Assembly (NCBI GenBank): GCA_013203115.1
Contig: JABMQW010000139.1
Coordinates: forward strand, 33,703-97,702
Origin: Fidelibacterota bacterium
GTDB lineage: Bacteria > Fidelibacterota > Marinisomatia > Marinisomatales > TCS56
Length of the DNA stretch: 64,000 nucleotides
Direction of reading: 5' to 3'
This document shows, one piece after another, positions 595-29,668 of this stretch. A program made the translations under genes and the position numbers. The notes under the pieces are model-generated. The model made no database searches. It saw only the letters and a list, made by a program, of their open reading frames with translations, and was not told the origin of the DNA. How positions within the stretch are numbered: position 1 is the stretch's first letter; the number at the start of each line of letters is the position of its first letter.

Positions 595-1341
595 TTAAGA
601 CATTGTCAGGCCACCATCGACAGCATAAGTTTGTCCGGTAATATAGCCGGCGGCATCGGATGCCAGAAACTGTACCATAGTAGCGATATCATTAGTGTTT
701 CCAATTTTTCCCAGAGGTATTTGCTTGATTAACTCAGTTTTAACCTCGGCTTTTAAACCGGCAGTCATATCGGTGTCGATATATCCCGGTGCTATACAAT
801 TTACGGTTATCCCTCGTGAGGCCAGTTCTCTGGCGGTTGCTTTGGTAAGTCCGATCAATCCCGCCTTGGATGCGGAATAATTTGCTTGTCCGGCATTTCC
901 GGTGAGACCAACCACTGAAGAAATATTGATTATCCGCCCGCGGCGCTGTTTCAGCATTGGACGCGAAACAGCTTTAATCGTATTGAAAGCGCCCTTAAGA
1001 TTTGTATTTAGCACTGTATCCCAATCAGACTCGGACATGCGCATTAATAGGGTATCGCGGGTTACGCCAGCATTATTTACTAGAATATCGATTTGACCAA
1101 ATTCCTTTACGATGTTTTGAACCAGAACAGCAACACTTTCCGATTCGACAATATTGCAGGCTGCCGCACTGGCATTTAGTCCCTGGTCTTTCAACGCGTT
1201 GGCGACAGATTGAACTGCCTCTAAATTGCGACTGACACACACAACATGGGTACCAGCCTGGGCCAATGTTTCGGCAATGCCGCGCCCGATTCCCCGGGAT
1301 GCGCCAGTAATTAAAGCTATTTTATTGTCTAATTCAAACAT
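595..1341 (-). CDS. fabG: 3-oxoacyl-ACP reductase (SDR)
   Basis: 248 aa with TGASRGIG Rossmann motif and the NNAG and YSASK catalytic motifs. fab operon position. Confidence 0.95.
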   Translation of the reverse strand: MFELDNKIALITGASRGIGRGIAETLAQAGTHVVCVSRNLEAVQSVANALKDQGLNASAAACNIVESESVAVLVQNIVKEFGQIDILVNNAGVTRDTLLMRMSESDWDTVLNTNLKGAFNTIKAVSRPMLKQRRGRIINISSVVGLTGNAGQANYSASKAGLIGLTKATARELASRGITVNCIAPGYIDTDMTAGLKAEVKTELIKQIPLGKIGNTNDIATMVQFLASDAAGYITGQTYAVDGGLTMS

Positions 1342-2263
1342 TGTTGAAATGACTGATATCGGTCAACGATTCCACTCCATAGACTAATAATTTACGATTA
1401 ATTCGACGTAATAAACCTTGTAAAACTCGCCCGGGCCCCACCTCAATAAATCTAGTAATACCGGTACCGGACATATTGGTAATTGAAAGATGCCAGCGGA
1501 CAGGGTTTTCTAATTGATCGATCAAGGTTTCGCGGATCGCATCAGCGGTTGTTACCGGCTCGGTAGTAACATTAGTATAAACAGGGATTGTTAGATCGTT
1601 GATTGATGTATCCTGTAATTTTTTCATTAATTTTTCACGGGCCGGGGCCATTAACGGGGAGTGAAAAGCACCGCTGACTTTTAATTCCACTACTTTTCGG
1701 GCACTGGCTTCCTGGGCTAAATCCATAGCCTTATGCACTCCGCTGATCGATCCTGAAATTACTATTTGTCTGGGTGCATTATAATTTGCTGCAACAACAG
1801 TCCCGGAAGCTGACGCTTGCTCACAAACATTTTCGACGGTTGCATCATCAAGTCCGATAATTGCGGCCATGGTACCTGTTTGAATCTCGCCTGCTTCCTG
1901 CATGCTTTCAGCCCGGATTTTTACCAGGTCCAAACCTGCGCCAAAATCGAACGCGCCAGCAATTGTCAGCGCGGAATATTCACCCAGGCTATGGCCGGCA
2001 GCAGCGATTGGGATAACTCCGGATTCGATCAATAATTGCCCTAGAATAACACTTACTATATAAATGGCTGGTTGAGTGTAGCGGGTCTGTTTGAGCATAT
2101 TTTCCGGCCCGTTGAATGTAATGTCTTTGATATCCAGACCCATGATATCGTTCGCGAGATCGAAACATTGTTTTCCAATTTTGGTTTTAGTATATAATTC
2201 CAGTCCCATACCAACTTGCTGGGAGGCTTGGCCGGGGAAAATAAAAGCCGTGTTCATCATCAT
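1334..2263 (-). CDS. fabD: malonyl CoA-ACP transacylase
   Basis: 309 aa with FPGQASQ and the GHSLGEYSAL active-site serine motif. Overlaps the fabG start by 8 nt. Confidence 0.95.
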   Translation of the reverse strand: MMMNTAFIFPGQASQQVGMGLELYTKTKIGKQCFDLANDIMGLDIKDITFNGPENMLKQTRYTQPAIYIVSVILGQLLIESGVIPIAAAGHSLGEYSALTIAGAFDFGAGLDLVKIRAESMQEAGEIQTGTMAAIIGLDDATVENVCEQASASGTVVAANYNAPRQIVISGSISGVHKAMDLAQEASARKVVELKVSGAFHSPLMAPAREKLMKKLQDTSINDLTIPVYTNVTTEPVTTADAIRETLIDQLENPVRWHLSITNMSGTGITRFIEVGPGRVLQGLLRRINRKLLVYGVESLTDISHFNNV

Positions 2264-2264
2264 C

Positions 2265-3242
2265 TTACCAGCGGATTAACATACTGCCCCAGGAATAACC
2301 AGCCCCAAAAGCAGCCAATAATAACAGGTCGCCACTTCGCAATTTACCTTTTTCCACGGATTCATCGATTCCAATCGGAATGGTACCTGCCGTGGTGTTA
2401 CCATATTTACCAATATTGATAACGACTTGGTCTTCATGAAATCCACAGCGCTTGCTGGTAATATCAATGATGCGCTTATTTGCTTGATGCGGAATAAACA
2501 GTGTGACGTCCGACCCGTTAAAATTGTTGCGTTCCAGGATCTCCAGACTAACGTCCGCCATCCCTTTGGCGGCAACTTTAAAAACAGCTTTACCATCCTG
2601 CTGAACATAATGCTCTTTATTAGCCACTGTTTCCGCTGATGCAGGTTTCAAACTGCCACCGGCCGGCATAAATAAATATTTACTACCAGAACCATCCAGA
2701 TGCAACTTGGCATCGATTATGCCTGATTGATTCAGACTGGGTTCCAGCAGAACTGCGCCGGCACCATCACCGAACAATACACAGGTATTGCGGTCCTCAA
2801 AATTCAGGATTGAACTCATGGTGTCAGCGCCAATAACCACGACTTTTGAATATTTACCAGACTCAACAAGTTTAGCCCCGGTTTCTAAAGCAAATAAAAA
2901 ACCAGTACAGGCACCGGATAAATCAAAACCCCAGGCATTTTTAGCTCCCAGATTATTTTGGATCAAAGCAGCGGTAGAGGGAAATAACAAATCAGGTGTG
3001 ATGGTAGCCACGATAATTACATCAATTTCTTCAGGGCTGTATCCGGAACGCTCCAGTAATTGTTGTGTCACCCGTGTGCCCATATCTGCCGTTGCCTGCC
3101 CTGGAACCACAAAACGTCGTTCGGATATACCGGTCCGGGTTCTGATCCACTCGTCATTTGTATCAACTAATTTTTCCATATCCGCATTAGTAAATATCCG
3201 CTCTGGTAAATAGCGTGCTGTGGCTGTGATTGCTGATTTCAA
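2265..3242 (-). CDS. fabH: beta-ketoacyl-ACP synthase III
   Basis: 325 aa with the ACTGF active-site Cys region, HQAN and GNTTAG motifs. Confidence 0.95.
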   Translation of the reverse strand: MKSAITATARYLPERIFTNADMEKLVDTNDEWIRTRTGISERRFVVPGQATADMGTRVTQQLLERSGYSPEEIDVIIVATITPDLLFPSTAALIQNNLGAKNAWGFDLSGACTGFLFALETGAKLVESGKYSKVVVIGADTMSSILNFEDRNTCVLFGDGAGAVLLEPSLNQSGIIDAKLHLDGSGSKYLFMPAGGSLKPASAETVANKEHYVQQDGKAVFKVAAKGMADVSLEILERNNFNGSDVTLFIPHQANKRIIDITSKRCGFHEDQVVINIGKYGNTTAGTIPIGIDESVEKGKLRSGDLLLLAAFGAGYSWGSMLIRW

Positions 3243-3244
3243 AG

Positions 3245-4243
3245 CTATACTCCCAAATGTTCTGCTAAACTGACCTTAGTATCGTCAATAAGATTTTTTT
3301 CAACACATGATATGGCAACCATAATAGAATTTTTAATTGCTTTTTCACTGGAACTACCATGGCAAATAATACTTAATCCATTTACACCCAGTAAAGGAGT
3401 TCCACCATATTCCTCGTAATCAAAATGTTTCTTGATTGAAGAAAAAACCGGTTTCAATAGTAAGGCGCCTAATAAGTAACGTTTCCGATTGCCAATCCGA
3501 TTTTTGATTTCATCAGAAAAAGTTTTAAGCCATCCTTCAGCAAATTTTAATATTGTATTGCCCACGAATCCGTCACAAACCAATACCCGTGCTTCGCAAT
3601 CTAACAGATGCCGTCCTTCCACATTACCGACAAAATTATCCAGCTCCTGGTCAAGCAAGGCATATGTTTTCTGGTAAAGATCGCTGCCTTTATTGGATTC
3701 GGTACCAATATTTATCAATCCAATTGGTGGATTTTTAATTTTTTCAACGTGGGTAAGATAATGAGAAGCCATAATGGCGAATTGTAACATGTGAAATGGT
3801 TTAACGTCCGGGTTTGCTCCGACATCACAAATTATTTTACCACCGGTTAAGGTGGGAATATAAGCACCCAGAGCTGGTCGTTTAACACCAGGTATGCGTC
3901 CAAAGGACAATAATGAAGTGGACATGACAGCACCCGTGTTCCCAGCGCTGATAAAAGCATCAGCCTTGTTGTCTTTAACCAGCTTAATGCCTTGAACAAT
4001 CGATGAATCCGGCTTGGCCTTGATAACCCTTGAGGCCGATTCGTGCATGTTGACTATTTGGGTAGCGGGGTGAATACTGATTCGCGAACTTTCCTGACCA
4101 TTAAGTTCCGCTTCAATTGCTTCCGGCTGCCCAACCAGAATAAATTTTATATCATCGGTAGTTTCTGCCAGAACCCACAGGACTCCCCTTACAACTGCCC
4201 GAGGGGCTAAATCTCCCCCCATGGCATCTAAAGCTAATTTCAT
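3245..4243 (-). CDS. plsX: phosphate acyltransferase PlsX
   Basis: 332 aa with MGGD near the N-terminus. Conserved rpmF-plsX-fabH order. Confidence 0.93.
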   Translation of the reverse strand: MKLALDAMGGDLAPRAVVRGVLWVLAETTDDIKFILVGQPEAIEAELNGQESSRISIHPATQIVNMHESASRVIKAKPDSSIVQGIKLVKDNKADAFISAGNTGAVMSTSLLSFGRIPGVKRPALGAYIPTLTGGKIICDVGANPDVKPFHMLQFAIMASHYLTHVEKIKNPPIGLINIGTESNKGSDLYQKTYALLDQELDNFVGNVEGRHLLDCEARVLVCDGFVGNTILKFAEGWLKTFSDEIKNRIGNRKRYLLGALLLKPVFSSIKKHFDYEEYGGTPLLGVNGLSIICHGSSSEKAIKNSIMVAISCVEKNLIDDTKVSLAEHLGV

Positions 4244-4257
4244 TTAAACTTGATAAA

Positions 4258-4437
4258 TCATTCCGTCGTAGATATTACCGGCCGCCCACGATAATAACCA
4301 CAGTTGGGGCAAGCACGGTGCGGCATTTTTGTTTGATTGCATTGTGGGCATTCCATTACGGATACGCTGGCTGCTTTATAATGTGTGCGCCGTTTACGTC
4401 CCCGCGCTTTTGATATTCTAGTTTTTGGTAGTGCCAT
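4258..4437 (-). CDS. rpmF: 50S ribosomal protein L32
   Basis: Not in the ORF track because it is under 60 aa. Hand translation gives MALPKTRISKARGRKRRTHYKAASVSVMECPQCNQTKMPHRACPNCGYYRGRPVISTTE (59 aa), with a CxxC...CxxC zinc ribbon, between yceD and plsX. Confidence 0.9.
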   Translation of the reverse strand: MALPKTRISKARGRKRRTHYKAASVSVMECPQCNQTKMPHRACPNCGYYRGRPVISTTE

Positions 4438-4464
4438 GGTTACTCCTAATCCTTTGCATCGAAT

Positions 4465-4962
4465 TTATTCTACTAATTTTTTCAAGTCGTTCCATTGACC
4501 TTCGTCGCGTGGAACAGAGCAGGAACAGGTCTGCTGATTTAAATTCTGTCCGCAGACCGGGCAAATTCCTTTACAATCCTTCCGGCATAAGGTTTTAATC
4601 GGTTCATCGAGATAAATCAAGTCGTGAACGATTGTTGATATGTCAACCCAATCCTGACTATCGGGGAACCAAAGAAAATCCTCATTGACTTCCGAAATAA
4701 GATCTTGATTGGATGTTAACCAGAATAAAATCGGCAGCTCGTGTTCTTGCGGAAAATTGGTTAAACAACGATCACAAATCTCAATCGTACTCCAGATCAG
4801 TTTTCCGGTTATTTTGTATCCATCAAAAGCAGTTACCGCTGTCAACATACATCGGACAATTGGCTCCGCAAATTGGATAATGTCAGTTTTTAGTTCGTTG
4901 ACTGGTATCTCAAATAGCTTGTCGCTAAATCCAGCGATTAGATCGGAACGAAAAAGCTTCAT
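4465..4962 (-). CDS. DUF177 / YceD-family protein (23S rRNA accumulation protein-like)
   Basis: 165 aa with a C-terminal Cys cluster (CKGICPVCGQNLN..CSC). Canonical position upstream of rpmF. Confidence 0.8.
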   Translation of the reverse strand: MKLFRSDLIAGFSDKLFEIPVNELKTDIIQFAEPIVRCMLTAVTAFDGYKITGKLIWSTIEICDRCLTNFPQEHELPILFWLTSNQDLISEVNEDFLWFPDSQDWVDISTIVHDLIYLDEPIKTLCRKDCKGICPVCGQNLNQQTCSCSVPRDEGQWNDLKKLVE

Positions 4963-5007: not shown

Positions 5008-5037
5008 AAAAAGTGCCTGTATTTTCAGGCACTTTTT
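5008..5037 (-). terminator. rho-independent terminator (bidirectional hairpin)
   Basis: AAAAAGTGCCTG-TATTTT-CAGGCACTTTTT is a perfect 12-nt arm hairpin flanked by A/T runs, about 30 nt downstream of the 5069..6253 gene. Confidence 0.7.
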
Positions 5038-5068
5038 AATCATTGAACAGCTTAAGTTTTTATTTTGA

Positions 5069-6253
5069 TCAGGTTTTATCCTGATCTTTGTCATCAGTCT
5101 CAGTGGATTTCTCTATTGCCGATTCATCCACCGTTTCACTTACTTCTTCCTGTTCCTCTTCTTCTTCAGCTTCCAACTCTTCCTCATCTTTGCGTTCTAG
5201 TAAATTATCATCATCGGATTTCTTTTTAAATATGATAAACATTAGAGTTTCTCCGACTGAAAGGATGGAAAGGCCATATGCGATTACTGATGCAAATAGG
5301 ATGAAAAGGAAAATAGCTACGATAATACCGGCGGCAGAATGTGTGAATGGCATATCAGCGCCCGGAACCGGAAACAGGCTGCACAAACTGGAGCATGAAG
5401 AACTGCAGAATGAGGGAAAGACAATTTCACTGGCATAACCGACAATATTGGATAACTTGGATCCCATACCCAAAATCCATTCGGATCCAAATATAAGGTT
5501 GACCAACTTATAACCACCGTACCAGAATATGCCGAATAGATAGACTGCCAGGTAGACCAGCGGCAAAAGAATTAGGTGGTAAAGAACAATCCGCCAAGGC
5601 TGGGACCAGGTAATGGAATAACTTTGAAATACAGCACCCATTGTGTCTTCCTCGTAGGCACTTACAATTGCGGGTGTATAAACAAAAGAGGTGATCAATA
5701 CAACGGCGGTATAAACCGTGAAAACTGAACCAAAAAAGTAGAACAGGTAGGGCAGGGCAAACAGAAATTCTCCCACCCAGGGTATCTTCCCAACCAGACC
5801 GAAGATAGCCGCCATAATCAGGAAAAATATAATGATTATTGCAACACTCAACGAAGTGAAAATGACCGGATGCCAGTGATTTTTAACGTATTTCCAAGCA
5901 TCTCCAGAGGAATAAAATTCATCACCCTTCAGTTGTTTGTAAGTTACCCGCGCAACGGCGGTACAAGCTAAATTAATCGTAAAGAACCAGGCGATGATAC
6001 CAATCCAGTAGATTAACTGGGCGTACCAGGGACCGCAACCGGCGGCGTAGAGACAGGGATATAATCCGAATTCCTTCCAGGCCGAAGCAAAGGATATTCC
6101 AGTTAAACCTAATGCAACGTGGGTAAGCAACCAATAGGCAATCCAGCCACTGATCAGCCCGAATAGAAAGATGAATATTTTCTTTCCACTCAAAGCAAGT
6201 CGTGGAGCCCTGAAAATATCGCGAACGTCAAAGTACAAATTCATCGGACCCAT
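5069..6253 (-). CDS. multi-pass integral membrane protein with acidic C-terminal tail, unknown function
   Basis: 394 aa with many hydrophobic segments. The C-terminal roughly 60 aa are strongly acidic (EEELEAEEEEEQEEV...DDKDQDK). I recognise no catalytic motif. Confidence 0.6.
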   Translation of the reverse strand: MGPMNLYFDVRDIFRAPRLALSGKKIFIFLFGLISGWIAYWLLTHVALGLTGISFASAWKEFGLYPCLYAAGCGPWYAQLIYWIGIIAWFFTINLACTAVARVTYKQLKGDEFYSSGDAWKYVKNHWHPVIFTSLSVAIIIIFFLIMAAIFGLVGKIPWVGEFLFALPYLFYFFGSVFTVYTAVVLITSFVYTPAIVSAYEEDTMGAVFQSYSITWSQPWRIVLYHLILLPLVYLAVYLFGIFWYGGYKLVNLIFGSEWILGMGSKLSNIVGYASEIVFPSFCSSSCSSLCSLFPVPGADMPFTHSAAGIIVAIFLFILFASVIAYGLSILSVGETLMFIIFKKKSDDDNLLERKDEEELEAEEEEEQEEVSETVDESAIEKSTETDDKDQDKT

Positions 6254-6265
6254 AATGTTCTCCTT

Positions 6266-7066
6266 TTAATTTTCTAATCTTATATGGTCAACCCAAGTGT
6301 CACCTTTGGTCATCGACCTAATATTGGCAGCTACTGTCACTGCAACAGAATAACTTTCAAAACTGCCTACGCGTACCCGATACCAAATTTCGTCGGTTTC
6401 TTTGAAATAGGCTTTTTGAATATAGGAGTCAAACCCTGCTTCTAATAAACTTTCGGCTGATTTTTGTGCATCTTTGAAAGTTCGTTTAGCACTGGTTTGA
6501 ATCGTATATCGATTGGGATCCTTCGGAATTGTTGCGCCGGGGACTGGCTTGGCAGGTTTCCGTGAGGCAATATAGGTTTGTCGAATCGGTTTAGCTACTG
6601 AAGCAATTAGTTGTTCCTCATAACTAGGAACAGGTTCCGGTTCGAAATAGGTTTTGTCATCAAAAAATTGTGCTTCAGGAACTGTATCCGTGATATCTTC
6701 TTCAGCAAAATCTTCTTCGTCGTCACTGATATCATCGGATTCAATAATCTCGAAGGGAAAGTTTTGAGATGAAACTTCATCACCAAACTCGTCTGACACT
6801 ATTACGGCAAATTCATAAGTTCCGGGATAGTCGGGAATGAAAGAGATTGTCTGGTTATCTTCGGACAATTCCAGATCATCGGCGGTTAATGCGCTGGCAT
6901 CCGGTTGTTGGATTATCGACCAGGTATAGTCAAATATTCCTTCTTCACCAGGTGGCTCAGCGCGTGCCGATTGATATTCACCCACTATTCCTTCATTAAT
7001 ATCCTCTCCGCAACCAGCCAGCAATAAAATGCTGACTATAATTATGATGAAACGTGATATGTTCAT
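6266..7066 (-). CDS. SPOR-domain lipoprotein
   Basis: Signal peptide with lipobox LLAGC. It has an acidic linker and a C-terminal YTIQTSA...YRVRVGSF pattern typical of SPOR peptidoglycan-binding repeats. Confidence 0.65.
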   Translation of the reverse strand: MNISRFIIIIVSILLLAGCGEDINEGIVGEYQSARAEPPGEEGIFDYTWSIIQQPDASALTADDLELSEDNQTISFIPDYPGTYEFAVIVSDEFGDEVSSQNFPFEIIESDDISDDEEDFAEEDITDTVPEAQFFDDKTYFEPEPVPSYEEQLIASVAKPIRQTYIASRKPAKPVPGATIPKDPNRYTIQTSAKRTFKDAQKSAESLLEAGFDSYIQKAYFKETDEIWYRVRVGSFESYSVAVTVAANIRSMTKGDTWVDHIRLEN

Positions 7067-17824: not shown

Positions 17825-20800
17825 ATGAACAGAAACAAATTTAGCTTTCTTTTAATACTAGTCCTGCCGATGCTCCTGATCGGTCAACAATGGACTATCC
17901 TAACAACTTACACTATACCCGGTAAGGCTTCAGGGTTGGCTTATGACGGAACCTACTTATACAGCGGGATCTACGGCAGCAATGGAGATGAAGTACATCG
18001 CATCAATCCAACCGATGGGACCTATTCACTGCAGTTTGCCGACACAAATTTGGCTGACACCTACGGGATGACCTTCAACGGCAGCAGCTTGTGGATCACC
18101 GACCACCGCACTGGAACATACGAACCGGCAATTGCCTATGAATACAGCATTACGGGAGATTCATTATCTCAGTTCGACCTGCCCGATCACTACATGTCCG
18201 GAATTACTTATGATGACGGCGATTTCTGGGTAGCGACCTACTACCCGGACCCAGGCACGATTTACAAACTTAACGCGACTGGCAGTGTCCTCTCCTCTTT
18301 CACGGCTCCGGCCAATCAACCCTGGGATTTGTGCCTGGAAAATGGCGACCTGTGGGTAGCTGATTATTATGAAAACACATTGTTTGAAGTTGATACCTCA
18401 TCTGGAGCGATTATTGAGAGTCACCTGGCTGAAAACATCAAACCGGCGGGAATTGTTTACGACGGTCAATACCTCTGGTACGTGGATGGTCCCCTCTCCT
18501 CCCCCAGTACGCTTTACAAAGTGGACCTGGGCGGGGCCGGTACGCCGGCGATCGAACTAAGTTTCGATCAATATGATTTCGGAAATGTCAACCTGAGTAG
18601 TTACGGCAGCGTAAACCTGGTAATCACCAATGCTGGGACCGGCGATTTGACGATCAGCGGATTCAATTTCAGCAGCAATCGTTTTTCATCAACTTTTGCG
18701 GTGCCCCAGACGATCACCGCTTCCGGTTCCGTCAATGCTTCCCTCCTGTTTATACCCATCGTTACCGGTCCAACTTACGGAACGCTGACAATCGACTGTA
18801 ACGATCCCATCGATCCTCAGGTCCAGGTTGAACTAACCGGCTATGGTCTGACGCCGGTCAGAGATATTAAAGCGGAATATACCCTGATGGATTTCTACAA
18901 TATCCGCATCGGCGCCCATACTGCCCGCAAGATTCTAATCAGCAACCAGGGCGCTACCAACCTGACGATCAGCGACGTCAATTTTGATAACACCGTTTTT
19001 TATGTCGATCCGGGGCATACTTTCCCGGTTAACCTAACCACCCGGGACACTATGAGTCTGCGCTACTGGTTCTCACCGCCCACCACTGGTCAGTATCTCG
19101 GTGCAATGACAATCGTTTCCGATGATCCGGATGAACCCAACCTGGAGGTTACCGTGGCCGGGACCGGAATCCAGAGCGACCCGGCGATTGGGACTGAATT
19201 ATGGCATCTCACCAGTAATCTCGATTACGAAAAAATTATTGCCTGCCGGAATTTCGTCGATATTACCGGCGATGGTATCCGGGAACTGCTGGTGGCCGAT
19301 AATGAATACCAGGTTCATTGTGTCAATGGTAACAGTTCCGGCAAGGCCGATATAATCTGGACTTTCAGCAGCCAGCTCGGGACCTATTGGACCGGATCGA
19401 TCTATCAGGAACCGGGGCTGAAGGTGACTGGTGATCTCAACGGCGATGGCATAGCCGATGTCGTGGTTGGAACGGCCTGGGGCAGCCGGTCGATTTTCAC
19501 CTTAGATGGCGGCGATGGCAGTATCATCTGGTATTTCGATTCCCATACTATTGGTGGCGGGGGCTGGGTCTATGAAGTCGATGGGAAATATGACTTTAAC
19601 TCCGATGGCATCCCTGACATCCTGGCCTGTGCCGGGGATGACAGTTATGGAACGGGTCCCAAGCGAGTCTGGCTGTTTGACGGAAGCAATGGCAACCTGA
19701 TCTGGCAGCATTTATTCGGTGTGGCCGTTGCTTCGGTGATCAGCATCCAGGATGCCACCGGAGATGGGATTCCGGAGGTTGTCTGCGGTGAATCGGTCAA
19801 TTCCGGTTCCGCTTACGTATATTTATTGAACGGAGCCAATGGCAATACGCTCTACTCCTGGAATTCAGGTTCATCGGCTGTGATGGCCCTGACGACTATC
19901 GCCGACGGCAATAATGATGGACTGGAAGATTTCTGCTACGGCGATTTCCAAGGTGATTTTGTGGCTCACTCAACAAACAATACTGTATTGTGGACGGTCT
20001 CCCTGGGCTCAGGATTAATAACTTACCTCGATAAACTGACCACCAGCAACGGGGAATATATTCTACCGGCGATCCTGGGTAATTACACCTTTCCCGTCAT
20101 CGATACTGATGATGGTTCATTCCTGTGGTCTATTTCACCCGGCGGCTATACCCTTGATTCTGCCCCGATTGCCGATATCGATGCTGATGGAATTAATGAT
20201 GTCCTGATCGGAACTTATGATGGCTCCGGCGGTGCTCATAAAATTCTGGTTGCCTCCGGTAGCGATGGCCAACTGGTCTACGACCATACGCCCGGCAGCC
20301 CGGTCGAACAGGTGATCGCCATCGATGACTTAGATGGGAACGGCAGTTCCGAGATCGTCTATGGCTTACGCAATGGTAATCTGTACTGTATCTCCGGTGG
20401 TACCGAGGGCAGCCAGACCAACAATCCGCCCCTGATCACGGCAATTGCCCATGATCCGGCCGTTCCCTCCTCGGATGACGCTGTCCTGGTTTCGGCAACG
20501 ATCACTGACGATATCAGTATTATTTCCACCATCTGCTACTGGGGAAATGACAGCATTTATTTTCCCAACGCGATTACTATGGTCCCTGCCGGTGGTCTAA
20601 ATCGTTTCAGTACAGCAACACCGATCCCACCGGAATCTGCTGGTTTTTCGATTTATTATTTTATCGAAGCTCAGGACCTGACCGATACAACCACTTCCTC
20701 GGTTTTTGGTTATACGGTCTTCGATCCACCTAATTTGTTCATCAATGAGATCATGTACAATTCACCGGAAGTTGCCGATAATGAATGGATTGAGTTATAC

Positions 20801-21505
20801 AATGGTGAATCCGTGGCCTTGGATCTGGCAGGCTATTTTCTGAAGACTGGTAGCTCGGGAGCCAATATGGTTATCCTTCCCCAGGGAGCAAGTATCGCAT
20901 CGGGAGACTATTTCACGATTGCCCTGACAATAGGGACACCACCGCTCTCCTTTACACCGGATTACGATGGCAGTGGTTTAATCAGCCTGAATGATAATGG
21001 TGATCTGATCAGCCTCTACCATCCCGATGGTCCGTTGGTCAACAACCTGGTATTCGATGATGCCAGTCCCTGGCCGCCGGAACCGGATGGAACCGGTCCA
21101 TCGCTGGAATTAATCTCGCTTACATTGGATAATTCCATACCAGTTAGTTGGCAGGCCAGTTGGATCGCCGGCGGTACACCCGGCGTGATGAACAGTGATT
21201 CAACCATGGTTGGCACCAGTCCTGACAACCACCAATTACCCCGGGAGTTTACGCTCTATCAGAATTATCCCAATCCCTTTAACCCACGCTCAACCATTCC
21301 CTTTGCCCTACCGGTTGCCGATCGGGTCAATCTATCCGTTTTCGACCTTACCGGGCAGCGGGTTGCGGTACTGATTGATGGTTATCTAAAGGCAGGCTAT
21401 TACACACAAACTTTCCGGGCGGATGGTCTGGCCAGTGGAATTTATTTATACCGCCTGAAGACTAGTCGGTTTGTTTCGACCAAAAAATTGATAATCGTAA
21501 AATAG
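17825..21505 (+). CDS. secreted multidomain T9SS cargo protein (beta-propellers, FG-GAP/integrin-like repeats, lamin-tail domain, Por C-terminal sorting domain)
   Basis: - 1226 aa with a signal peptide.
- N-terminal repeated YDG..LW/FW blades.
- Two Ig-like modules with F.FG.V...S....L.ITN.G...L.IS signatures.
- Seven D-x-N/D-G-D-G-x-x-D/E FG-GAP-like calcium motifs.
- LFINEIMYNSP..DNEWIELYN, which is lamin-tail-like.
- C-terminal LYQNYPNPFNP...GIYLYRL...KKLIIVK, typical of a T9SS sorting domain. Confidence 0.8.
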   Translation: MNRNKFSFLLILVLPMLLIGQQWTILTTYTIPGKASGLAYDGTYLYSGIYGSNGDEVHRINPTDGTYSLQFADTNLADTYGMTFNGSSLWITDHRTGTYEPAIAYEYSITGDSLSQFDLPDHYMSGITYDDGDFWVATYYPDPGTIYKLNATGSVLSSFTAPANQPWDLCLENGDLWVADYYENTLFEVDTSSGAIIESHLAENIKPAGIVYDGQYLWYVDGPLSSPSTLYKVDLGGAGTPAIELSFDQYDFGNVNLSSYGSVNLVITNAGTGDLTISGFNFSSNRFSSTFAVPQTITASGSVNASLLFIPIVTGPTYGTLTIDCNDPIDPQVQVELTGYGLTPVRDIKAEYTLMDFYNIRIGAHTARKILISNQGATNLTISDVNFDNTVFYVDPGHTFPVNLTTRDTMSLRYWFSPPTTGQYLGAMTIVSDDPDEPNLEVTVAGTGIQSDPAIGTELWHLTSNLDYEKIIACRNFVDITGDGIRELLVADNEYQVHCVNGNSSGKADIIWTFSSQLGTYWTGSIYQEPGLKVTGDLNGDGIADVVVGTAWGSRSIFTLDGGDGSIIWYFDSHTIGGGGWVYEVDGKYDFNSDGIPDILACAGDDSYGTGPKRVWLFDGSNGNLIWQHLFGVAVASVISIQDATGDGIPEVVCGESVNSGSAYVYLLNGANGNTLYSWNSGSSAVMALTTIADGNNDGLEDFCYGDFQGDFVAHSTNNTVLWTVSLGSGLITYLDKLTTSNGEYILPAILGNYTFPVIDTDDGSFLWSISPGGYTLDSAPIADIDADGINDVLIGTYDGSGGAHKILVASGSDGQLVYDHTPGSPVEQVIAIDDLDGNGSSEIVYGLRNGNLYCISGGTEGSQTNNPPLITAIAHDPAVPSSDDAVLVSATITDDISIISTICYWGNDSIYFPNAITMVPAGGLNRFSTATPIPPESAGFSIYYFIEAQDLTDTTTSSVFGYTVFDPPNLFINEIMYNSPEVADNEWIELYNGESVALDLAGYFLKTGSSGANMVILPQGASIASGDYFTIALTIGTPPLSFTPDYDGSGLISLNDNGDLISLYHPDGPLVNNLVFDDASPWPPEPDGTGPSLELISLTLDNSIPVSWQASWIAGGTPGVMNSDSTMVGTSPDNHQLPREFTLYQNYPNPFNPRSTIPFALPVADRVNLSVFDLTGQRVAVLIDGYLKAGYYTQTFRADGLASGIYLYRLKTSRFVSTKKLIIVK

Positions 21506-22319: not shown

Positions 22320-22727
22320 TTAGCAAATGGAGTGAATATTCGAATTTTTAATCAGGCTAAGCTGTCTGATCATATCTATTTTAGTTATCGGTTTTTGCAA
22401 AATAGCATCAACTTCCAAATGTTGAATATTTTCCTTATGAATATTATTCGATGTGATAATGACAATCGGATTTGAGAAACCGCGTTTCCGTAATTCTCTG
22501 ACAGCATCAATACCATTTCTAACGGGCATATTAATATCCATAAAGATCAGTTCCGGCTGATGAACTTCGCATTGCTCAATGGCATTTTGCCCTTCGCTGG
22601 CTGATAGAATAGTGCCAGCATACTCCCGTTTCAGGAAGTATTGATAAAGCTTGTTGACTGAATTATCATCCTCGACAATCATTATTGATCGATTGTCATT
22701 ATTGTTTATATTGTAGTTAGGTTCCAT
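22320..22727 (-). CDS. stand-alone CheY-like response regulator receiver
   Basis: 135 aa with the IMIVEDD acidic pocket, phospho-acceptor Asp in LIFMDINMP, a conserved T/S (IVIITS) and K (LQKP). There is no output domain. Its start overlaps the stop of the upstream TPR gene (TAATG). Confidence 0.85.
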   Translation of the reverse strand: MEPNYNINNNDNRSIMIVEDDNSVNKLYQYFLKREYAGTILSASEGQNAIEQCEVHQPELIFMDINMPVRNGIDAVRELRKRGFSNPIVIITSNNIHKENIQHLEVDAILQKPITKIDMIRQLSLIKNSNIHSIC

Positions 22728-24220
22728 TAAGCTTTACTTTTGGTCTTAAGTAGCACTTGCTGATAAGATATCTTCAGACTATCTGCGATACTTTTTTTAT
22801 TATGCTGATGATGTTTCAAAAGGAAAGTGAATAAATCGGTCTCAAATTTCTGATTAGCTCCCCGCCAATCCATGTCAGCGATACTATCGAGATAGCGTAA
22901 GAAATAGGGATTATTTTCGATAAGATCGGGAATACCTGGTCCGCGTTGCAGACCCAGCTTTTTCTGATGCAGGAAGTACGTTCGCGGTTCAATCCCAAGG
23001 TGTTGACACAATTCCGGAGCAGCCTTGGTCCGGTTTAAATGCAACTGGAGCAGATTAGTATGGAAAATCCTGCGGATATCGTTCATCGATTTATTCATCG
23101 TGAAATTGAATATTTCAGCGTTGACATCGATATTTGGCAATGATTTGTTCCGGTTCAGAAATTCGATATAGGTATACAATAGTTTCTTCCGAAAACCCAG
23201 GATACGCAGTTCCAGGTTGATTTCATACTGCAAGTCATGGTAGCCGGTGCTGAAGTATTTATCCGCCAGATCCAATTCACCCACCTTATCGTGACAAATA
23301 CCCAATTTATAATAATCTTCAAACGCCATATCCCGCATCTCGTAACGCGTCGTCAGATGTAGGGACTGGGAATGGTAATTGATCGCTTCAGCAAAGCGGT
23401 CCTGGTCAAATTCAAGACAACCCAGGTTCTGTAAGACCAGACTGCGCTGATATGGAGGAGGATCGAATCCCAGTATTCCCAAATAAATTTGTTCGGCCCG
23501 GTTGAATTCTTTTTCAAGATAATACAGCCAGCCCCGATCATTTAACAATTCATATTTAAAAATAACCATCTTATGCTCGTCAGCCAGAGCGAGGGCTTCA
23601 TCATAGATTTGAATCGCTTTATTATATTCACCCAGCACAACGTATGTATTGGCAATGTGCCTTAAAATTCGGGCTGCTCTGACATGGTTCTTGACAGAGT
23701 AAAAATAGTCCAACGATCTTTTCAGGATCCGAATCGATTTACGACTATTGGAAAATTTATAACACAGTCCCAATTGTGTATTCAAGCGCCAGATCAAGGC
23801 TTCATTCTGGGAATATTTCAGGGCTTCCTGGAGAATGGTGATCGCCTCATTGCGATAGCCCAGCTTTCGTAAAAGGCTGGATAATTCGGAATACACGACT
23901 GCCAGACCCTCCTCATTAGTCACCAGATCGATCGACTTATGGAATGCTGCAAAGGCGCTGATATAATTACCGACAAAGGTATGAATGCCCCCCAAGCCGG
24001 CAAATACGACCCCTTTGATAGTGGGATCGGCAACCTGCTCGAGGGCATTCAAGCGGTCTAAAGCCAATTCAGTCGAAATTACATTCAGATCATAGATGTC
24101 CGTTATAATGGCTGAGAAATGATTGATTAACTCTTTATTCTGGATCAGTTTTGCAGTGGAAATATCCTTATTCGGAAACGGGATAAGAGTTTTAACATCA
24201 ACAGATACAGTTTTAATCAT
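22727..24220 (-). CDS. TPR-repeat regulator with C-terminal Fis-type helix-turn-helix segments
   Basis: About 497 aa from the ATG at 24220, which has a GGGGGA Shine-Dalgarno 4 nt upstream. The central part is a long run of 34-aa TPR-like repeats. The C-terminal NRTKAAPELCQHLGIEPRTYFLHQKKLGL resembles an NtrC/Fis HTH_8, and a second weaker HTH lies at the extreme C-terminus. Confidence 0.7.
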   Translation of the reverse strand: MIKTVSVDVKTLIPFPNKDISTAKLIQNKELINHFSAIITDIYDLNVISTELALDRLNALEQVADPTIKGVVFAGLGGIHTFVGNYISAFAAFHKSIDLVTNEEGLAVVYSELSSLLRKLGYRNEAITILQEALKYSQNEALIWRLNTQLGLCYKFSNSRKSIRILKRSLDYFYSVKNHVRAARILRHIANTYVVLGEYNKAIQIYDEALALADEHKMVIFKYELLNDRGWLYYLEKEFNRAEQIYLGILGFDPPPYQRSLVLQNLGCLEFDQDRFAEAINYHSQSLHLTTRYEMRDMAFEDYYKLGICHDKVGELDLADKYFSTGYHDLQYEINLELRILGFRKKLLYTYIEFLNRNKSLPNIDVNAEIFNFTMNKSMNDIRRIFHTNLLQLHLNRTKAAPELCQHLGIEPRTYFLHQKKLGLQRGPGIPDLIENNPYFLRYLDSIADMDWRGANQKFETDLFTFLLKHHQHNKKSIADSLKISYQQVLLKTKSKA

Positions 24221-24371
24221 TTTCCCCCTGTCCTGAATCAACTGTGTAAACTACCTCGTTCATTGTGTCATAATAACCACCGTCTTTTACAACTTCATCC
24301 TTGGCAGTACCAGTGTAGACAGTCGTCATTAATGCGATTAAAATCATGAATAATATTTGTTTTAGTGACAT
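24213..24371 (-). CDS. small secreted peptide precursor (52 aa), unannotated
   Basis: Hand translation gives MSLKQILFMILIALMTTVYTGTAKDEVVKDGGYYDTMNEVVYTVDSGQGEND. AAGGAG lies 6 nt upstream of the ATG. The N-terminus is a hydrophobic signal-like segment and the C-terminal half is acidic. The stop overlaps the ATG of the TPR regulator (AATGATTAA). Confidence 0.55.
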   Translation of the reverse strand: MSLKQILFMILIALMTTVYTGTAKDEVVKDGGYYDTMNEVVYTVDSGQGEND

Positions 24372-24558
24372 GTTTTACTCCTTTTGTAGTTTTGTTTTCA
24401 TCATATTGTACTGAAATATTTTGTATATATCAAGTAATATTTTATATATTCCAGCAGTCCCGTAACCATTGCGCGGATTGAATTGGGTACGCCACTTACC
24501 CAAACTACTTCAACAGGAGTCATCCAGTAGATTGAAAATCGATAATAATACTAATCAA

Positions 24559-26127
24559 ATGTGGCAATTATCACAGGACTCAGCAATAACTGTTTTAGAC
24601 GGACAGGCGCCGGATGTTACCAGCATTCTCATCGTAGAAGATGACGATGCCATCGCCAAACAACTACAGTATTTGTTAAACAAATTTGAGTATTCTGTCC
24701 AGGATGTACTGAAAAGTGGCGAAGAGTTAATTGAAAAATTGAACTATTTGGAGCCTGATGTTTTAATAATGGATATTGGACTCAGCGGCGAATTGGATGG
24801 GATCAGTACCGTTGAAAAACTGCATAAACAGTACAAACTTCCAATCATCTATTTATCAGCAAAAACCGACCGCAAGACTCTGAGGAGGGCGCTATGCACT
24901 GATCCCTTTGGCTATCTGACTAAACCGGTCAATCCAATCGAATTACGCTTCACAATTGAGCTGGCAATATATAAGCATCGTACAGAGCAAAAATTACAGA
25001 CTCAAAGAGAATGGTTAAAGACCGCATTGACAAGTATTGGAGATGGTGTAATCAGCACTGACAATACCGGGGTAGTGACTTTTATTAATCCCAATGCTGA
25101 AATTGGTTTGCAGATAAAAAGTGAAGCAATCCTTAACAGGGAATTCAATTCAATCCTAAACTTGGTAGATGATGATAATAATGCTCCAGTTGATCCGGTT
25201 AAACAGGCAATCCGGCAAGATTGTTCAATTCAGTTCAATAACCATATCCTGCAGAACAAAGCCACTGGACATAGTTTACCCGTCGATTGCACAGTAGCTC
25301 CCCTTTTTAATTCTAAAAAACAAATATCAGGCAGCATAATCATATTCCGTGATGTCTCGCAGCGAATTAAAGATTACCAGGAAAAAAGTCAGATAGAAGC
25401 ACAGTTGCGACATGCTCAGAAAATGGAGGCGATTGGCCAATTAACCAGCGGCATTGCTCATGAATTCAACAACATCATAACCGGCATTTCCAGTTACACT
25501 GAATTAGCCCAAGCTGAACTCCCGCCAGAAGACCCTATACAAAGATATCACTGTACTATTTTAAAAAAACTGGATCAAGCTATGTTATTGACCCGCAAAT
25601 TGCTGACTTTCAGTCGTAATGAAGATCTTCATTTTCAAACAACAGATCTAAATAACATTATTGATAATCACCTTCAATTTTTACAGCAAACAATAAGGGA
25701 TGGGGTAACAATTAAAGCTGACTTAGATTCCAACATTGGTCTGGTTAATGCTGATGTAAATGCCCTGGAACAGATTATCACCAACCTTTGCCTCAATGCC
25801 CGGGATGCGATTGAGGATTATGGTACAATTGAATTGCAAACAGAGCAGTATGAAATAACTGCAAACCCCCAGCATTATTCAGTCAATATAAGTCCCGGTT
25901 CCTATGTAAAACTGACAGTAAAAGACAACGGTGCCGGAATGGATGAGGAAACCAGACAAAAAATATTTGAACCGTTCTTTACAACAAAAGAGGCTACCAA
26001 CGGTTCCGGTCTCGGTCTGTCAATCGTTTATGGACTAATTGAGCAACATCATGGTTGGATCAATTGCATAAGCTATCCTCAGATTGGAACAGTATTCGAG
26101 TTATATTTTCCTGCTACACAACCGTAA
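24559..26127 (+). CDS. hybrid sensor histidine kinase (N-terminal receiver, PAS, HisKA, HATPase_c)
   Basis: - Receiver: [16 protein letters not shown].
- PAS-like: [20 protein letters not shown].
- H-box: [12 protein letters not shown].
- N and G boxes: [22 protein letters not shown].
- I prefer the ATG at 24559 to the track's TTG at 24469. Confidence 0.85.
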
Positions 26128-26211: not shown

Positions 26212-27465
26212 TCAAACTCGCTTTGGCGCTTTCACCAAAGAAATTATTATTGCTGCAAATAGACATAATATGCCACAAATAGTGAACGCTAATGGGAAAT
26301 TCCCCAGATCACCAAGTTTACCGCCTAAAATCGGACCAAAGATGCCGCCGATTCCATACGCCAGAAATACCCAGCCATAATTCTGACCAACATATTTAGT
26401 ACCGAATGTATCGGCAGTCATCGTGGGGAAAAGAGCAAAGTTACCCCCAAAATTAAAACCGATTAAAGTAGCACCCAGGTATAATAATGCCGGAATCCCT
26501 GCCATCCACTGGAAGAGAATTACAATAATTCCTTGAGTAGCCATCATAATAATTATAGATCGTTTGCGACCCAATTTGTCGCTGATGGCGCCCCAGGCAA
26601 TTCGCCCTATTCCATTGGCCAGAGAGAAAAAGACCGCCATGGCCGTACCGGCAATTGCACTGGCATTTGCCACAGCAGCAGCCGTAAGAGCTTGCATGGG
26701 AAAGAGTTTCATTAAGCCGATGCTCATCAGACCAGCACTGGCGCCAAATGCGAATGTCAGCAGAATCATATAGAATTGGGGTGTTTTAAGCATTTCACCA
26801 CTGCTGAAATCCACCGATCCGATCAGGCGGGCCGCACCCGGCTGTTGCTCGGGAGGTGTCCAGCCTTCCGGTTTCCAGCCCTCCGGCGGAAATACCATCC
26901 AGATACCACCGATCACTACTGAAAGCAGAAATACGACACCATAGATTGAAAAAGTGGTGCTGATACCCAGATCGGTAATAAGATTTCCCCAGGTACCGGC
27001 CAGCTTGACCCACAGCATTGCACCGAATCCGAATCCGGCCACTGCTAATCCGGTGATCAATCCTTTTTTATCCGGAAACCAGCGCATCCCAACCGCGATT
27101 GGGACCACATAGGCCAGCCCGATACCCGATCCACCGATCACACCGATAAAAATTAAAATCGCCCAGAAATTGGTGCCACCGAATAATCCCGCCAGTAAAT
27201 ATCCGGCACCGAGGACAATTCCACCGGCCATAGCCAGATTACGAGGTCCGATCTTGGGCATTAAACGGCCTGCAATTACCATGACAATAGCAAAAAATGC
27301 TAACCCGGCTGAAAAAACAACCTGGGTTTGAGCGGCTGACCAACCAGCTTGTTTTAATTGCGGTGTAAAGACCGACCAGGCATAGATGGCACCCAGACAA
27401 AGCTGAATCAAAATCGCCCCAATAACAACGAACCAGCGATTCATCACCTTAGTATTCGAATTCAT
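26212..27465 (-). CDS. MFS transporter, oxalate/formate antiporter (OFA)-like
   Basis: 417 aa with about 12 predicted TM segments. N-terminal NRWFVVIGAILIQLCLGAIYAWSVF is characteristic of the OFA family. Confidence 0.75.
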   Translation of the reverse strand: MNSNTKVMNRWFVVIGAILIQLCLGAIYAWSVFTPQLKQAGWSAAQTQVVFSAGLAFFAIVMVIAGRLMPKIGPRNLAMAGGIVLGAGYLLAGLFGGTNFWAILIFIGVIGGSGIGLAYVVPIAVGMRWFPDKKGLITGLAVAGFGFGAMLWVKLAGTWGNLITDLGISTTFSIYGVVFLLSVVIGGIWMVFPPEGWKPEGWTPPEQQPGAARLIGSVDFSSGEMLKTPQFYMILLTFAFGASAGLMSIGLMKLFPMQALTAAAVANASAIAGTAMAVFFSLANGIGRIAWGAISDKLGRKRSIIIMMATQGIIVILFQWMAGIPALLYLGATLIGFNFGGNFALFPTMTADTFGTKYVGQNYGWVFLAYGIGGIFGPILGGKLGDLGNFPLAFTICGILCLFAAIIISLVKAPKRV

Positions 27466-28674: not shown

Positions 28675-29668
28675 TTACAATGTGATGCTTCCACCAATCC
28701 GGTGAGCATTCCCGAGGTCATGCGCGGTAAAACTGTAATCAATACTAACCGGTCTTGTTCCAAATGGAAGCATTAATCCCAATCCCCCCTGCATAGCCCC
28801 AAGATTAGTTCCAAAACGCACGGCTACCAGGTTTTTTAAAATGCATTCCATACCGAAATCAAATTCGGATTCAGTCGACTTTTTCTGCGTTAGAAAAATA
28901 ATATCCACCGGAATTACTTGAAACGAATGACGATATCCAACTCCGGATATTACAGCCGGATGGATTTTATCATATTTTCCGCTGTTCCAATAAATTAAAG
29001 TCCCGGCGACATCGGAAACTGATAGTCCCAGGGTTAATTCGCCGATCCAGTCATAGCCTGTGGCATCGGCTAAATTAAAGCTCAGCATTGTACCAAGATC
29101 AACACCTATGCCATTTCCAACCAGATTGTATAATTCCTTGTGTAATAATTTGATATTCAAACCGATAGGAATTTGAACATCAAATGGTGTTATTTGCCAA
29201 CCAAGATCAATGGTTGTTGATAAATTGCGGGTAAGTGTAAGAAATACCCCGGTTTCCCGATCTTTAAATATTGAAAAACCACGTGCCACAAGGGTCCTGA
29301 TCGAATCACGCCGGGTCTCCAAATCCAGGATACTCCGCAGATCCGGTCGCTCAGGAATATTATCAACCGATAAATTCACTAGATTGATTCCCACTTGCCA
29401 GATTTGACGCCAAGGATGATTAGTACTAATAGCGATATAATCTGCCAAACCAAACTGGTTGATATACATAGCTGATAAATTAGTACCATTGACAAATCCA
29501 TTGGCGGCAGGATTAATGAGAAAACCACCAATTATTACTGGTTAAAGCACAGACCGCCTGTCCAACACCAATTGAGCGCGGATAAGCACCAATCCTGAGG
29601 AAAGCATCCGTGTATTGTTGGCCTGTCAGAATAGTGGAAACGATTAAGGCTGGCAGGAGATATTTCAT
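28675..29668 (-). pseudogene. outer-membrane beta-barrel protein, PorV/PorQ-like, interrupted by a frameshift near 29513-29535
   Basis: The N-terminal 51 aa (MKYLLPALIVSTILTGQQYTDAFLRIGAYPRSIGVGQAVCALTSNNWWFSH*) carry the signal peptide and an FLRIG..RS.G.G motif. The rest (..GGFLINPAANGF..., track ORF 28675..29469) continues in the +1 frame. Alternating beta-strand pattern throughout. Confidence 0.45.

Follow-up and report, generated by a model that had tools for sequence, protein, structure and literature searches.

Signalling by genetically encoded peptides through cytoplasmic receptors built of tetratricopeptide repeats (TPR) has been described as a feature of the Bacillota, which are Gram-positive, and of their mobile elements (PMC9765709); Bacillota genomes were also the only ones covered by the large RRNPP_detector survey (PMC10075063). 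RRNPP(A) receptors carry an N-terminal XRE-type helix-turn-helix (HTH) and/or a three-helix bundle ahead of the TPR domain (PMC9765709), and RRNPPA propeptides with tandemly duplicated pheromones that are cut by extracellular proteases exist (PMC11343458, PMC9765709). In filamentous cyanobacteria, the PatS/PatX/HetN-HetR system employs RG(S/T)GR peptides (PMC7761841, PMC12756182); a peptidase is reported to mature the precursor, and PatX is present in every HetR-containing cyanobacterium (PMC7761841). The phylum Marinimicrobia, with just one member in culture, is dominant in deep and in oxygen-poor ocean water (PMC11652737); our literature search found no paper that links it to peptide signalling. 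Here we analysed a stretch of 64,000 nucleotides of a Fidelibacterota bacterium (GenBank assembly GCA_013203115.1, contig JABMQW010000139.1, positions 33,703 to 97,702; hereafter the window), in which a short open reading frame (ORF) for a 52-aa exported protein, the sORF, overlaps the start of a gene for a TPR regulator with probable C-terminal HTH units. The sORF product ends in a heptad that recurs at the very end of small exported proteins in Marinimicrobia; these form a previously undescribed family encoded near TPR/DNA-binding regulators, and the heptad is proposed to be the signalling unit. The sORF and its control elements are the following:

24213..24371, minus strand: gene for a 52-aa exported pro-peptide (the sORF), read as an ORF, conserved in seven orthologous loci and held in GenBank as a hypothetical protein
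24378..24383, minus strand: Shine-Dalgarno AAGGAG, 6 nt ahead of the sORF ATG, read directly
24405..24433, minus strand: sigma-70-type promoter TTGATA-17 nt-TACAAT of the operon of sORF, TPR-HTH regulator and receiver, from a consensus scan (10/12)
24216..24236, minus strand: C-terminal heptad SGQGEND, which fits the family motif and overlaps the Shine-Dalgarno sequence and ATG of the TPR gene

The sORF product, read directly, is MSLKQILFMILIALMTTVYTGTAKDEVVKDGGYYDTMNEVVYTVDSGQGEND; residues 1-22 are signal-like and are followed by a fast-evolving acidic middle and the C-terminal heptad. The first-pass annotation, made from the letters of the window, had presented this ORF as unannotated, with AAGGAG 6 nt upstream of its ATG, a signal-like N-terminus and a stop codon overlapping the ATG of the TPR gene. 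Both translation signals are where it had placed them (AAGGAG at 24383..24378; stop 24215..24213 against the ATG 24220..24218 of the 497-aa TPR gene, an 8-nt overlap) and the ORF is real as described, but GenBank already holds the exact 52-aa sequence (NQT97323.1, 'hypothetical protein', Candidatus Marinimicrobia); the gene is genuine and uncharacterised, not unannotated. The export signal was judged by heuristics only; its features are K4, a hydrophobic core of 15 residues with a mean hydropathy of 2.27 and, at TGTA|K, small residues. The sORF of the window and its clade contains no Cys and hence no lipobox [LVI][ASTVI][GAS]-C. At the seven closest loci (L001-L004, L026, L029 and L030; L numbers designate loci throughout), a 52-54-aa ORF occupies the same place and shares the Shine-Dalgarno site, the hydrophobic N-terminus and the 8-nt overlap with the TPR start; an equivalent AGGAG was found at every orthologous locus, and the heptad tails across these seven are SGQGEND, SGYGENG, SGTGEND, SGTNENE and SGNNENG. 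The promoter segment is nearly invariant over the same loci, and in the window's clade two AAAATATT boxes, 21 bp apart, flank the promoter (about 24395-24445 in the window). A conserved palindrome, ATTGC-N6-GCAAT, is located ~60-70 nt upstream of convergent lipoprotein genes of the family in L027, L028 and L046-L049; as judged from sequence, the ATTGC-N6-GCAAT palindrome in the precursor promoter region is a candidate operator.

Within the window's clade, pN/pS (non-synonymous relative to synonymous change) of the signal and middle regions (N-terminal 45 codons) is about 0.3-1.5, and the heptad shows 0 non-synonymous changes between the window, L029 and L030. Throughout the family the tail follows the motif S-G-x-x-[E/Q]-N-[G/D/E] (consensus S-G-[T/G/Q]-[N/S]-[E/Q]-N-G), with 43 distinct heptads over 64 proteins and S1 and G2 invariant, and the heptad boundary is the exact end of every complete precursor. 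Codon variants between tandem copies within one gene comprised 50 synonymous versus 3 non-synonymous changes (expected synonymous fraction 0.23; p = 1.6e-28); since the copies differ almost only synonymously, the peptide sequence of the heptad is under selection. The motif is also retained in genes that do not overlap a TPR gene (L011, L013, L019, L024, L025 and L028). The heptad is not an overlap artefact, because the motif is kept away from the TPR ribosome-binding site, and the Shine-Dalgarno/start overlap was ruled out as a general cause of the conserved tail by these non-overlapping genes together with the 50:3 ratio. Paralogous precursors of one genome carry different heptads, SGGSDRG at L024 vs SGHRENG at L025 in one case and SGSNEND at L011 vs SGTNENS at L069 in another, and heptad identity drops as the receptors diverge (Mantel r 0.38, p 2e-4).

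Loci were fetched around 28 genome and 34 metagenome TPR homologues (62 in total), and 33 of them, all from Marinimicrobia/Fidelibacterota, contained an exported heptad-tailed partner. Conservation of a short exported ORF beside homologous TPR regulators had been set beforehand as one of the results on which the idea would stand or fall, and such an ORF was found across the Marinimicrobia subfamily. The partner overlaps the TPR gene by stop and start in the window, L001-L004, L006, L021, L022, L026, L029 and L030, and partners that are lipoproteins of 190-240 aa also overlap the TPR start (L006, L012, L020-L022). Small lipoprotein partners were located 350-390 nt upstream of the TPR gene (L013, L019), 3-4 kb upstream (L008, L009, L016, L018, L023, L045, L056, L068) or convergently just downstream (L024, L025, L027, L028, L046-L050). 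Loci without a partner were mostly short contigs, or ended inside or just past the gene that separates partner from regulator.

Most partners are lipoproteins, with lipoboxes such as LITAC, LVGC and IMAC and weak NCBIfam lipoprotein-signal matches, and the small ones share a conserved block (S/T)DFxNPLSSE directly after the Cys and end in 1-10 tandem heptads (for example 3x SGSNEND, 6x SGTSSNG, 7x SGQSENG and 10x SGVSENG). A profile of the small lipoproteins retrieved 48 clusters out of 5.8 billion proteins, all 'hypothetical' and from the same phylum, and no family in Pfam or NCBIfam covers the small proteins beyond signal-peptide resemblance. Precursors occur in a short Cys-less form, as repeat proteins of 40-110 aa and as proteins of 190-240 aa, which have only the signal and the tail in common; the remaining parts can be missing or evolve fast. 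One protein, at L058, is intermediate in that it combines a Cys-less signal with an NPLSSD block and repeats. On these comparisons the sORF of the window appears to be the minimal form of a Marinimicrobia-specific family of small exported proteins. Two known motifs were considered and rejected. The Bacteroidota lipoprotein export signal (LES) places K/S/Q and then 2-4 acidic residues in positions +2 to +6 behind the lipidated Cys (PMC5080379); it was ruled out as an explanation of the post-Cys block, which reads C-[ST]-D-F-x-N-P-L-S-S-E or C-[SG]-G-F-N-N-P-I-S-S-E and has no acidic run, with no more than one acidic residue between +2 and +6. An N-glycosylation sequon (N-x-S, formed at repeat junctions) was ruled out because it is absent in single-copy forms and because E stands at -1, not -2. 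When the search was started from the lipoprotein side, three of four look-ups fell at contig ends. In L066 a DDE transposase gene (5026-6666, minus strand) adjoins the heptad precursor gene, and in L067 a gene for a 1068-aa Ser/Thr kinase with TPR repeats (1337-4543, minus strand) is divergent from the precursor gene; both contigs end before any receptor gene.

The regulator that the sORF overlaps, and its parts, are the following:

22727..24220, minus strand: 497-aa regulator with TPR and tandem HTH, the proposed peptide receptor (Pfam TPR, AlphaFold2 [AF2], Foldseek)
23216..24025, minus strand: TPR superhelix, about residues 66-335 (Pfam TPR_12, TPR_2, TPR_1 and TPR_8; AF2)
22958..23086, minus strand: first probable Fis/NtrC-like HTH unit, about residues 379-421, ...LCQHLGIEPRTYFLHQKKLGL (AF2, Foldseek local fits)
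22742..22867, minus strand: second probable Fis/NtrC-like HTH unit, about residues 452-493, ...NKKSIADSLKISYQQVLLKT (NCBIfam, hhalign, AF2)

Eighteen aligned homologues begin at the same start position as the 497-aa protein, which has 69 full-length homologues of ~500 aa (32-93% identity); where named, all come from metagenome-assembled genomes (MAGs) of Marinimicrobia/Neomarinimicrobiota/Fidelibacterota. An exhaustive profile search added ~90 further full-length relatives with the same layout of TPR and two HTH units, and generic TPR proteins overwhelmed a third search for homologues. The best Pfam TPR match was TPR_12 (E 8e-19). An AF2 model built from 64 sequences is all-helical (pLDDT, the model's confidence score, 86.6), with short low-confidence helices in the N-terminal 65 residues, 15 consecutive helices over residues 66-335 at pLDDT >90, and eight more helices up to residue 493. 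The highest 19-residue hydropathy is 1.24, so that the protein has no hydrophobic, transmembrane or signal segment, and the regulator is therefore cytoplasmic. Against the Protein Data Bank (PDB), Foldseek matched the full model to peptide-binding TPR superhelices, with LGN/Pins best (E 6e-7); the matches to phage phi3T Rap, NprR and Rap followed at E 1.5-4e-4, outranked by designed TPRs as well as by eukaryotic LGN.

A separate AF2 model of the C-terminal 138 residues reached pLDDT 90. Foldseek matches of this domain were non-significant (E >2), and most of them, including the best local fits, were the DNA-binding domains of Fis, NtrC, NtrX or ZraR; the first unit fitted NtrC4 at 2.0 A over 55 columns and NtrC1 at 1.2 A over 38 columns (E >2). 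Residues 446-489 matched the PspF C-terminus of NCBIfam (E 0.009) and the last unit matched residues 56-94 of E. coli Fis (hhalign E 0.056), both sub-threshold. Two tandem C-terminal Fis-type HTH units are thus likely from the model, although not established. In P0268, a distant relative of 668 aa in the representative library, the entire two-HTH module is duplicated in near-identical blocks ('...FSNGKSWNEIRQ...KKFEKDFL...'). A TPR-HTH paralogue at L005 (4980-6482, plus strand) has no precursor or receiver within 5 kb upstream or 3.8 kb downstream and adjoins pseudopilin/type IV pilus-like genes; L012, from the same MAG, carries the 192-aa precursor form.

Two further signalling genes flank the sORF and the regulator:

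22320..22727, minus strand: 135-aa stand-alone CheY-like receiver (Pfam Response_reg, E 1.4e-20)
24469..26127, plus strand: divergent cytoplasmic REC-PAS-HisKA-HATPase hybrid kinase (Pfam domains), start uncertain (TTG 24469 or ATG 24559)

The pocket residues of the receiver, read from the translation, are D20/D21, D64, T92 and K112, and in 14 of the 28 genome loci a receiver gene comes after the TPR gene; in most loci a stand-alone receiver is co-transcribed. As the first-pass annotation had noted, the TPR stop overlaps the receiver ATG at 22727 (TAATG), which implies translational coupling. The kinase is indeed divergent, but the shared intergenic region, given there as 190 nt, measures 97-187 nt depending on the uncertain kinase start. 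Likewise, the proposed wiring to a phosphorelay holds for the co-transcribed receiver but not for the kinase, which was found in the closest clade only (L001, L003, L004, L026) and is absent in L002 and all more distant loci. The receiver therefore appears from locus comparison to be core, and the kinase a clade-specific accessory.

In many loci, the heptad-lipoprotein gene is separated from the TPR-HTH gene by an opposite-strand gene for a conserved exported protein of ~930-970 aa:

L008 1820-4636, minus strand: ~940-aa HExxH/propeller protein
L009 671-3592, minus strand: ~940-aa HExxH/propeller protein
L045 2038-4824, minus strand: ~940-aa HExxH/propeller protein
L068 1681-4473, minus strand: ~940-aa HExxH/propeller protein

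The same protein was found at L014, L016, L018, L023, L034-L037, L039, L040 and L056. It contains an invariant HEFTH...E (gluzincin-like), TolB/PD40 and Tricorn_N/Tricorn_2nd propellers and a beta-rich C-terminus that ends in aromatic residues; its N-terminal domain has no relative in Pfam or the PDB. These features make it a candidate precursor-processing protease, whose gene is absent from the window and the window's clade. In L069, which belongs to the same MAG as L011 (3x SGSNEND), a precursor with 4x SGTNENS (5080-5271, plus strand) lies directly downstream of a TonB-dependent receptor with a CarboxypepD_reg domain (2274-4793, plus strand), and the contig ends right after it. The receptor is a possible outer-membrane peptide importer.

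The arrangement resembles RRNPP(A) systems, and NprR-NprX-Spo0F and Rap-Phr most closely, in that a small exported pro-peptide gene is coupled to the gene of a cytoplasmic TPR receptor, the active unit would be located at the precursor C-terminus, peptide units can be tandemly duplicated in the precursor, the peptide variants are lineage- and paralogue-specific, and a single-domain receiver goes with the receptor, as Spo0F does with Rap and NprR. It differs in that the domain order is reversed (TPR, then two probable C-terminal Fis-type HTH units), family-level sequence similarity is lacking, the host is a diderm of the FCB group and not a member of the Bacillota, the precursors are mostly lipoproteins with an xDFxNPLSSE block, and the peptide is a polar/acidic heptad with invariant SG in up to 10 copies. 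Pfam and NCBIfam gave no match of the 497-aa protein to the Rap, NprR, PlcR, PrgX, Rgg or AimR families. The RRNPP-type logic put forward in the first-pass annotation thus stands as far as a C-terminal heptad under purifying selection and a cytoplasmic TPR regulator are concerned, but the system should not be filed as an RRNPP member, because its probable HTH units are C-terminal and Fis-type and no family-level similarity was seen; if it is a peptide-sensing circuit, it is a non-homologous diderm counterpart whose heptapeptide precursors are multi-copy and lipoprotein-tethered. The structure comparison suggested there did return peptide-binding superhelices including Rap and NprR, at a similarity no better than that to LGN, and of the domains named there TPR was confirmed by Pfam whereas the Fis-like HTH is backed only qualitatively. 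With PatS/PatX/HetN-HetR the locus has in common a diderm host, a small protein that carries a short conserved motif and acts (here, would act) on a cytoplasmic DNA-binding regulator, and co-occurrence of peptide and regulator; however, HetR is not a TPR protein, the peptide motif is the basic RGSGR and not SG-x-x-E-N-G, and that system has no lipoprotein precursors, tandem arrays or sequence relationship to this one. Both C-terminal units share the helix pattern and sequence register of Fis residues 56-94 with the Fis/NtrC HTH_8 type and superpose on the NtrC1/NtrC4 DNA-binding domains at 1.2-2.0 A, but they fall below curated thresholds, occur as two tandem units per chain and are attached to a TPR domain and not to an AAA+ or receiver module.

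We favour the reading that an exported and processed heptapeptide is sensed by the cytoplasmic TPR-HTH receptor, in a circuit analogous to RRNPP systems and outside the RRNPP family, and give it about even chances. The sORF product would be made from its own strong promoter in translational coupling with the regulator and the receiver, and exported by its N-terminal signal, which is a lipoprotein signal in most relatives and Cys-less and type-I-like in the window. For what follows export, that is processing, diffusion, import, peptide-TPR binding, DNA binding and autoregulation, we infer the course below. Extracytoplasmic cleavage would free the C-terminal heptapeptide (SGQGEND here, 2-10 tandem copies in relatives), which, being small enough for outer-membrane pores, would accumulate and be re-imported and would then bind the concave groove of the cytoplasmic TPR domain in the 497-aa regulator. 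Binding would alter DNA binding by the two Fis-type HTH units and/or contact with the co-expressed receiver, the latter resembling the action of Rap/NprR on Spo0F, probably with feedback on the operon's own promoter. A secreted-peptide circuit is the best explanation because it accounts for the heptad-ended precursor, the TPR/DNA-binding receptor, their linkage, the paralogue-specific heptads and the stand-alone receiver. A more specific version, in which Marinimicrobia independently evolved a pheromone system of lipoprotein-tethered 1-10x SG-x-x-E-N-G precursors, a dedicated HExxH/propeller protease, re-import, and a TPR/Fis-HTH receptor with a stand-alone receiver, is advanced tentatively, and we think the chances are rather against it in this full form.

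Several observations weigh against a secreted-peptide circuit. The host is diderm, and the signal must therefore cross the outer membrane twice, and no peptide importer was seen in the window or its flanks. The TPR matches are generic, with LGN outscoring Rap and NprR, and are no proof of RRNPP kinship; Pfam HTH_8 gave no match at E up to 1, and the HTH evidence is all sub-threshold. The correlation between heptad and receptor divergence is also expected from shared ancestry alone and is not decisive. No partner was found at L005 and L033 despite ample flanks, and at the one locus read among the distant relatives (P0190, L063) a receiver is adjacent and no precursor was found nearby. A hidden Markov model (HMM) failed to join the short Cys-less forms to the lipoprotein forms (E 0.5-0.8), which are linked here because of their shared tail, export signal and genomic position and of intermediates such as that of L058. 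The missing importer and the precursor-less P0190 would both fit a view that we consider unlikely, namely that the small exported protein is a structural or functional protein of the periplasm or surface (such as a tethered acidic tail, rich in Ser, Gly and Asn, with a binding partner outside the cell), that the TPR-HTH protein is its local transcription regulator, responding to other cues (by way of the receiver, for instance), and that the heptad is never a TPR ligand. Regulators often adjoin their targets, each precursor gene has its own promoter, surface proteins typically vary in repeat number, as the precursors do (1-10 copies), and the 190-240-aa forms seem to hold a folded domain, all of which agrees with this view. 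It does not readily explain why only the signal and one C-terminal heptad are universal while precursors can do without the lipid anchor, without the NPLSSE block and without the middle domain, or why all precursors end exactly at a heptad boundary; moreover, the single-copy forms of 45-52 aa would yield a mature product of ~25 residues, which is hard to picture as structural, the stop/start overlap implies that the precursor is co-produced with the regulator, and the sensor domain of the regulator is a peptide-binding fold.

The ~940-aa HExxH/PD40/Tricorn-type protein encoded between precursor and receptor genes in many clades, together with the second precursor that follows a TonB-dependent receptor in one MAG, allows for another use of the heptapeptides, in which an exported protease (for example this one) has the tethered repeat tail as its built-in substrate and the freed peptides report protease activity or the state of peptide uptake to the regulator; this would tune foraging for proteins and peptides and would not be a measure of population density. 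A diet made up mostly of proteins and peptides is ascribed to Marinimicrobia, which would suit such a reporter. Nevertheless, we regard it as distinctly improbable: the protease gene is missing from the window and its clade, the catalytic nature of the protein is indicated by the invariant HEFTH...E with no family or structure match, and release, import and binding would be the same conjectural steps as in the secreted-peptide circuit. Finally, in the window's clade the heptad overlaps the Shine-Dalgarno sequence and ATG of the TPR gene (the final 8 codons of the sORF cover the TPR ribosome-binding site and ATG), a second possible cause of local conservation that also counts against the circuit. 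Combined with the high pN/pS of the N-terminal 45 codons, this overlap might indicate that the ORF is non-functional as a protein and a by-product of constraints on the leader, the Shine-Dalgarno sequence and the start of the TPR gene. This we find scarcely credible, as length, frame, Shine-Dalgarno site, promoter and hydrophobic N-terminus are the same in eight loci, among which TPR-gene identity falls as low as 54%, and as the heptad motif turns up again in genes that are transcribed independently and do not overlap the TPR gene, and in tandem copies on which purifying selection is strong.

If true, the full pheromone system of the more specific version would give a diderm phylum outside the Bacillota its first RRNPP-like quorum-sensing architecture. 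A conserved precursor/receptor pair would extend peptide-pheromone logic to one of the most abundant uncultured bacterial groups of the dark ocean. The system is directly testable, as the predicted ligands are unmodified, synthesisable heptapeptides, the receptor is a soluble protein of 497 aa and the candidate operator lies within ~60 bp. Heptad 'pherotypes' could also act as population markers in metagenomes.

Among the other genes of the window, an MFS transporter of the L-lactate/oxalate-formate type (26212-27465, minus strand; NCBIfam SfMCT, E 3e-110) stays beside the kinase gene and is 86-93% identical across loci whose TPR genes share only 54-72%; given its L-lactate/oxalate-formate type, it was ruled out as the peptide importer. 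A 1226-aa secreted protein (17825-21505, plus strand) has a type IX secretion (T9SS) C-terminal sorting domain, with a tail that matches T9SS-type C-termini in several loci, and a 264-aa protein (28675-29469, minus strand) shows a weak PorV/PorQ-family match (E 7e-4); together, the two are consistent with an FCB-type envelope. A fatty-acid synthesis cluster (595-4243, minus strand) codes for the housekeeping functions PlsX-like FA_synthesis, FabH (ACP_syn_III), FabD (Acyl_transf_1) and FabG (adh_short).

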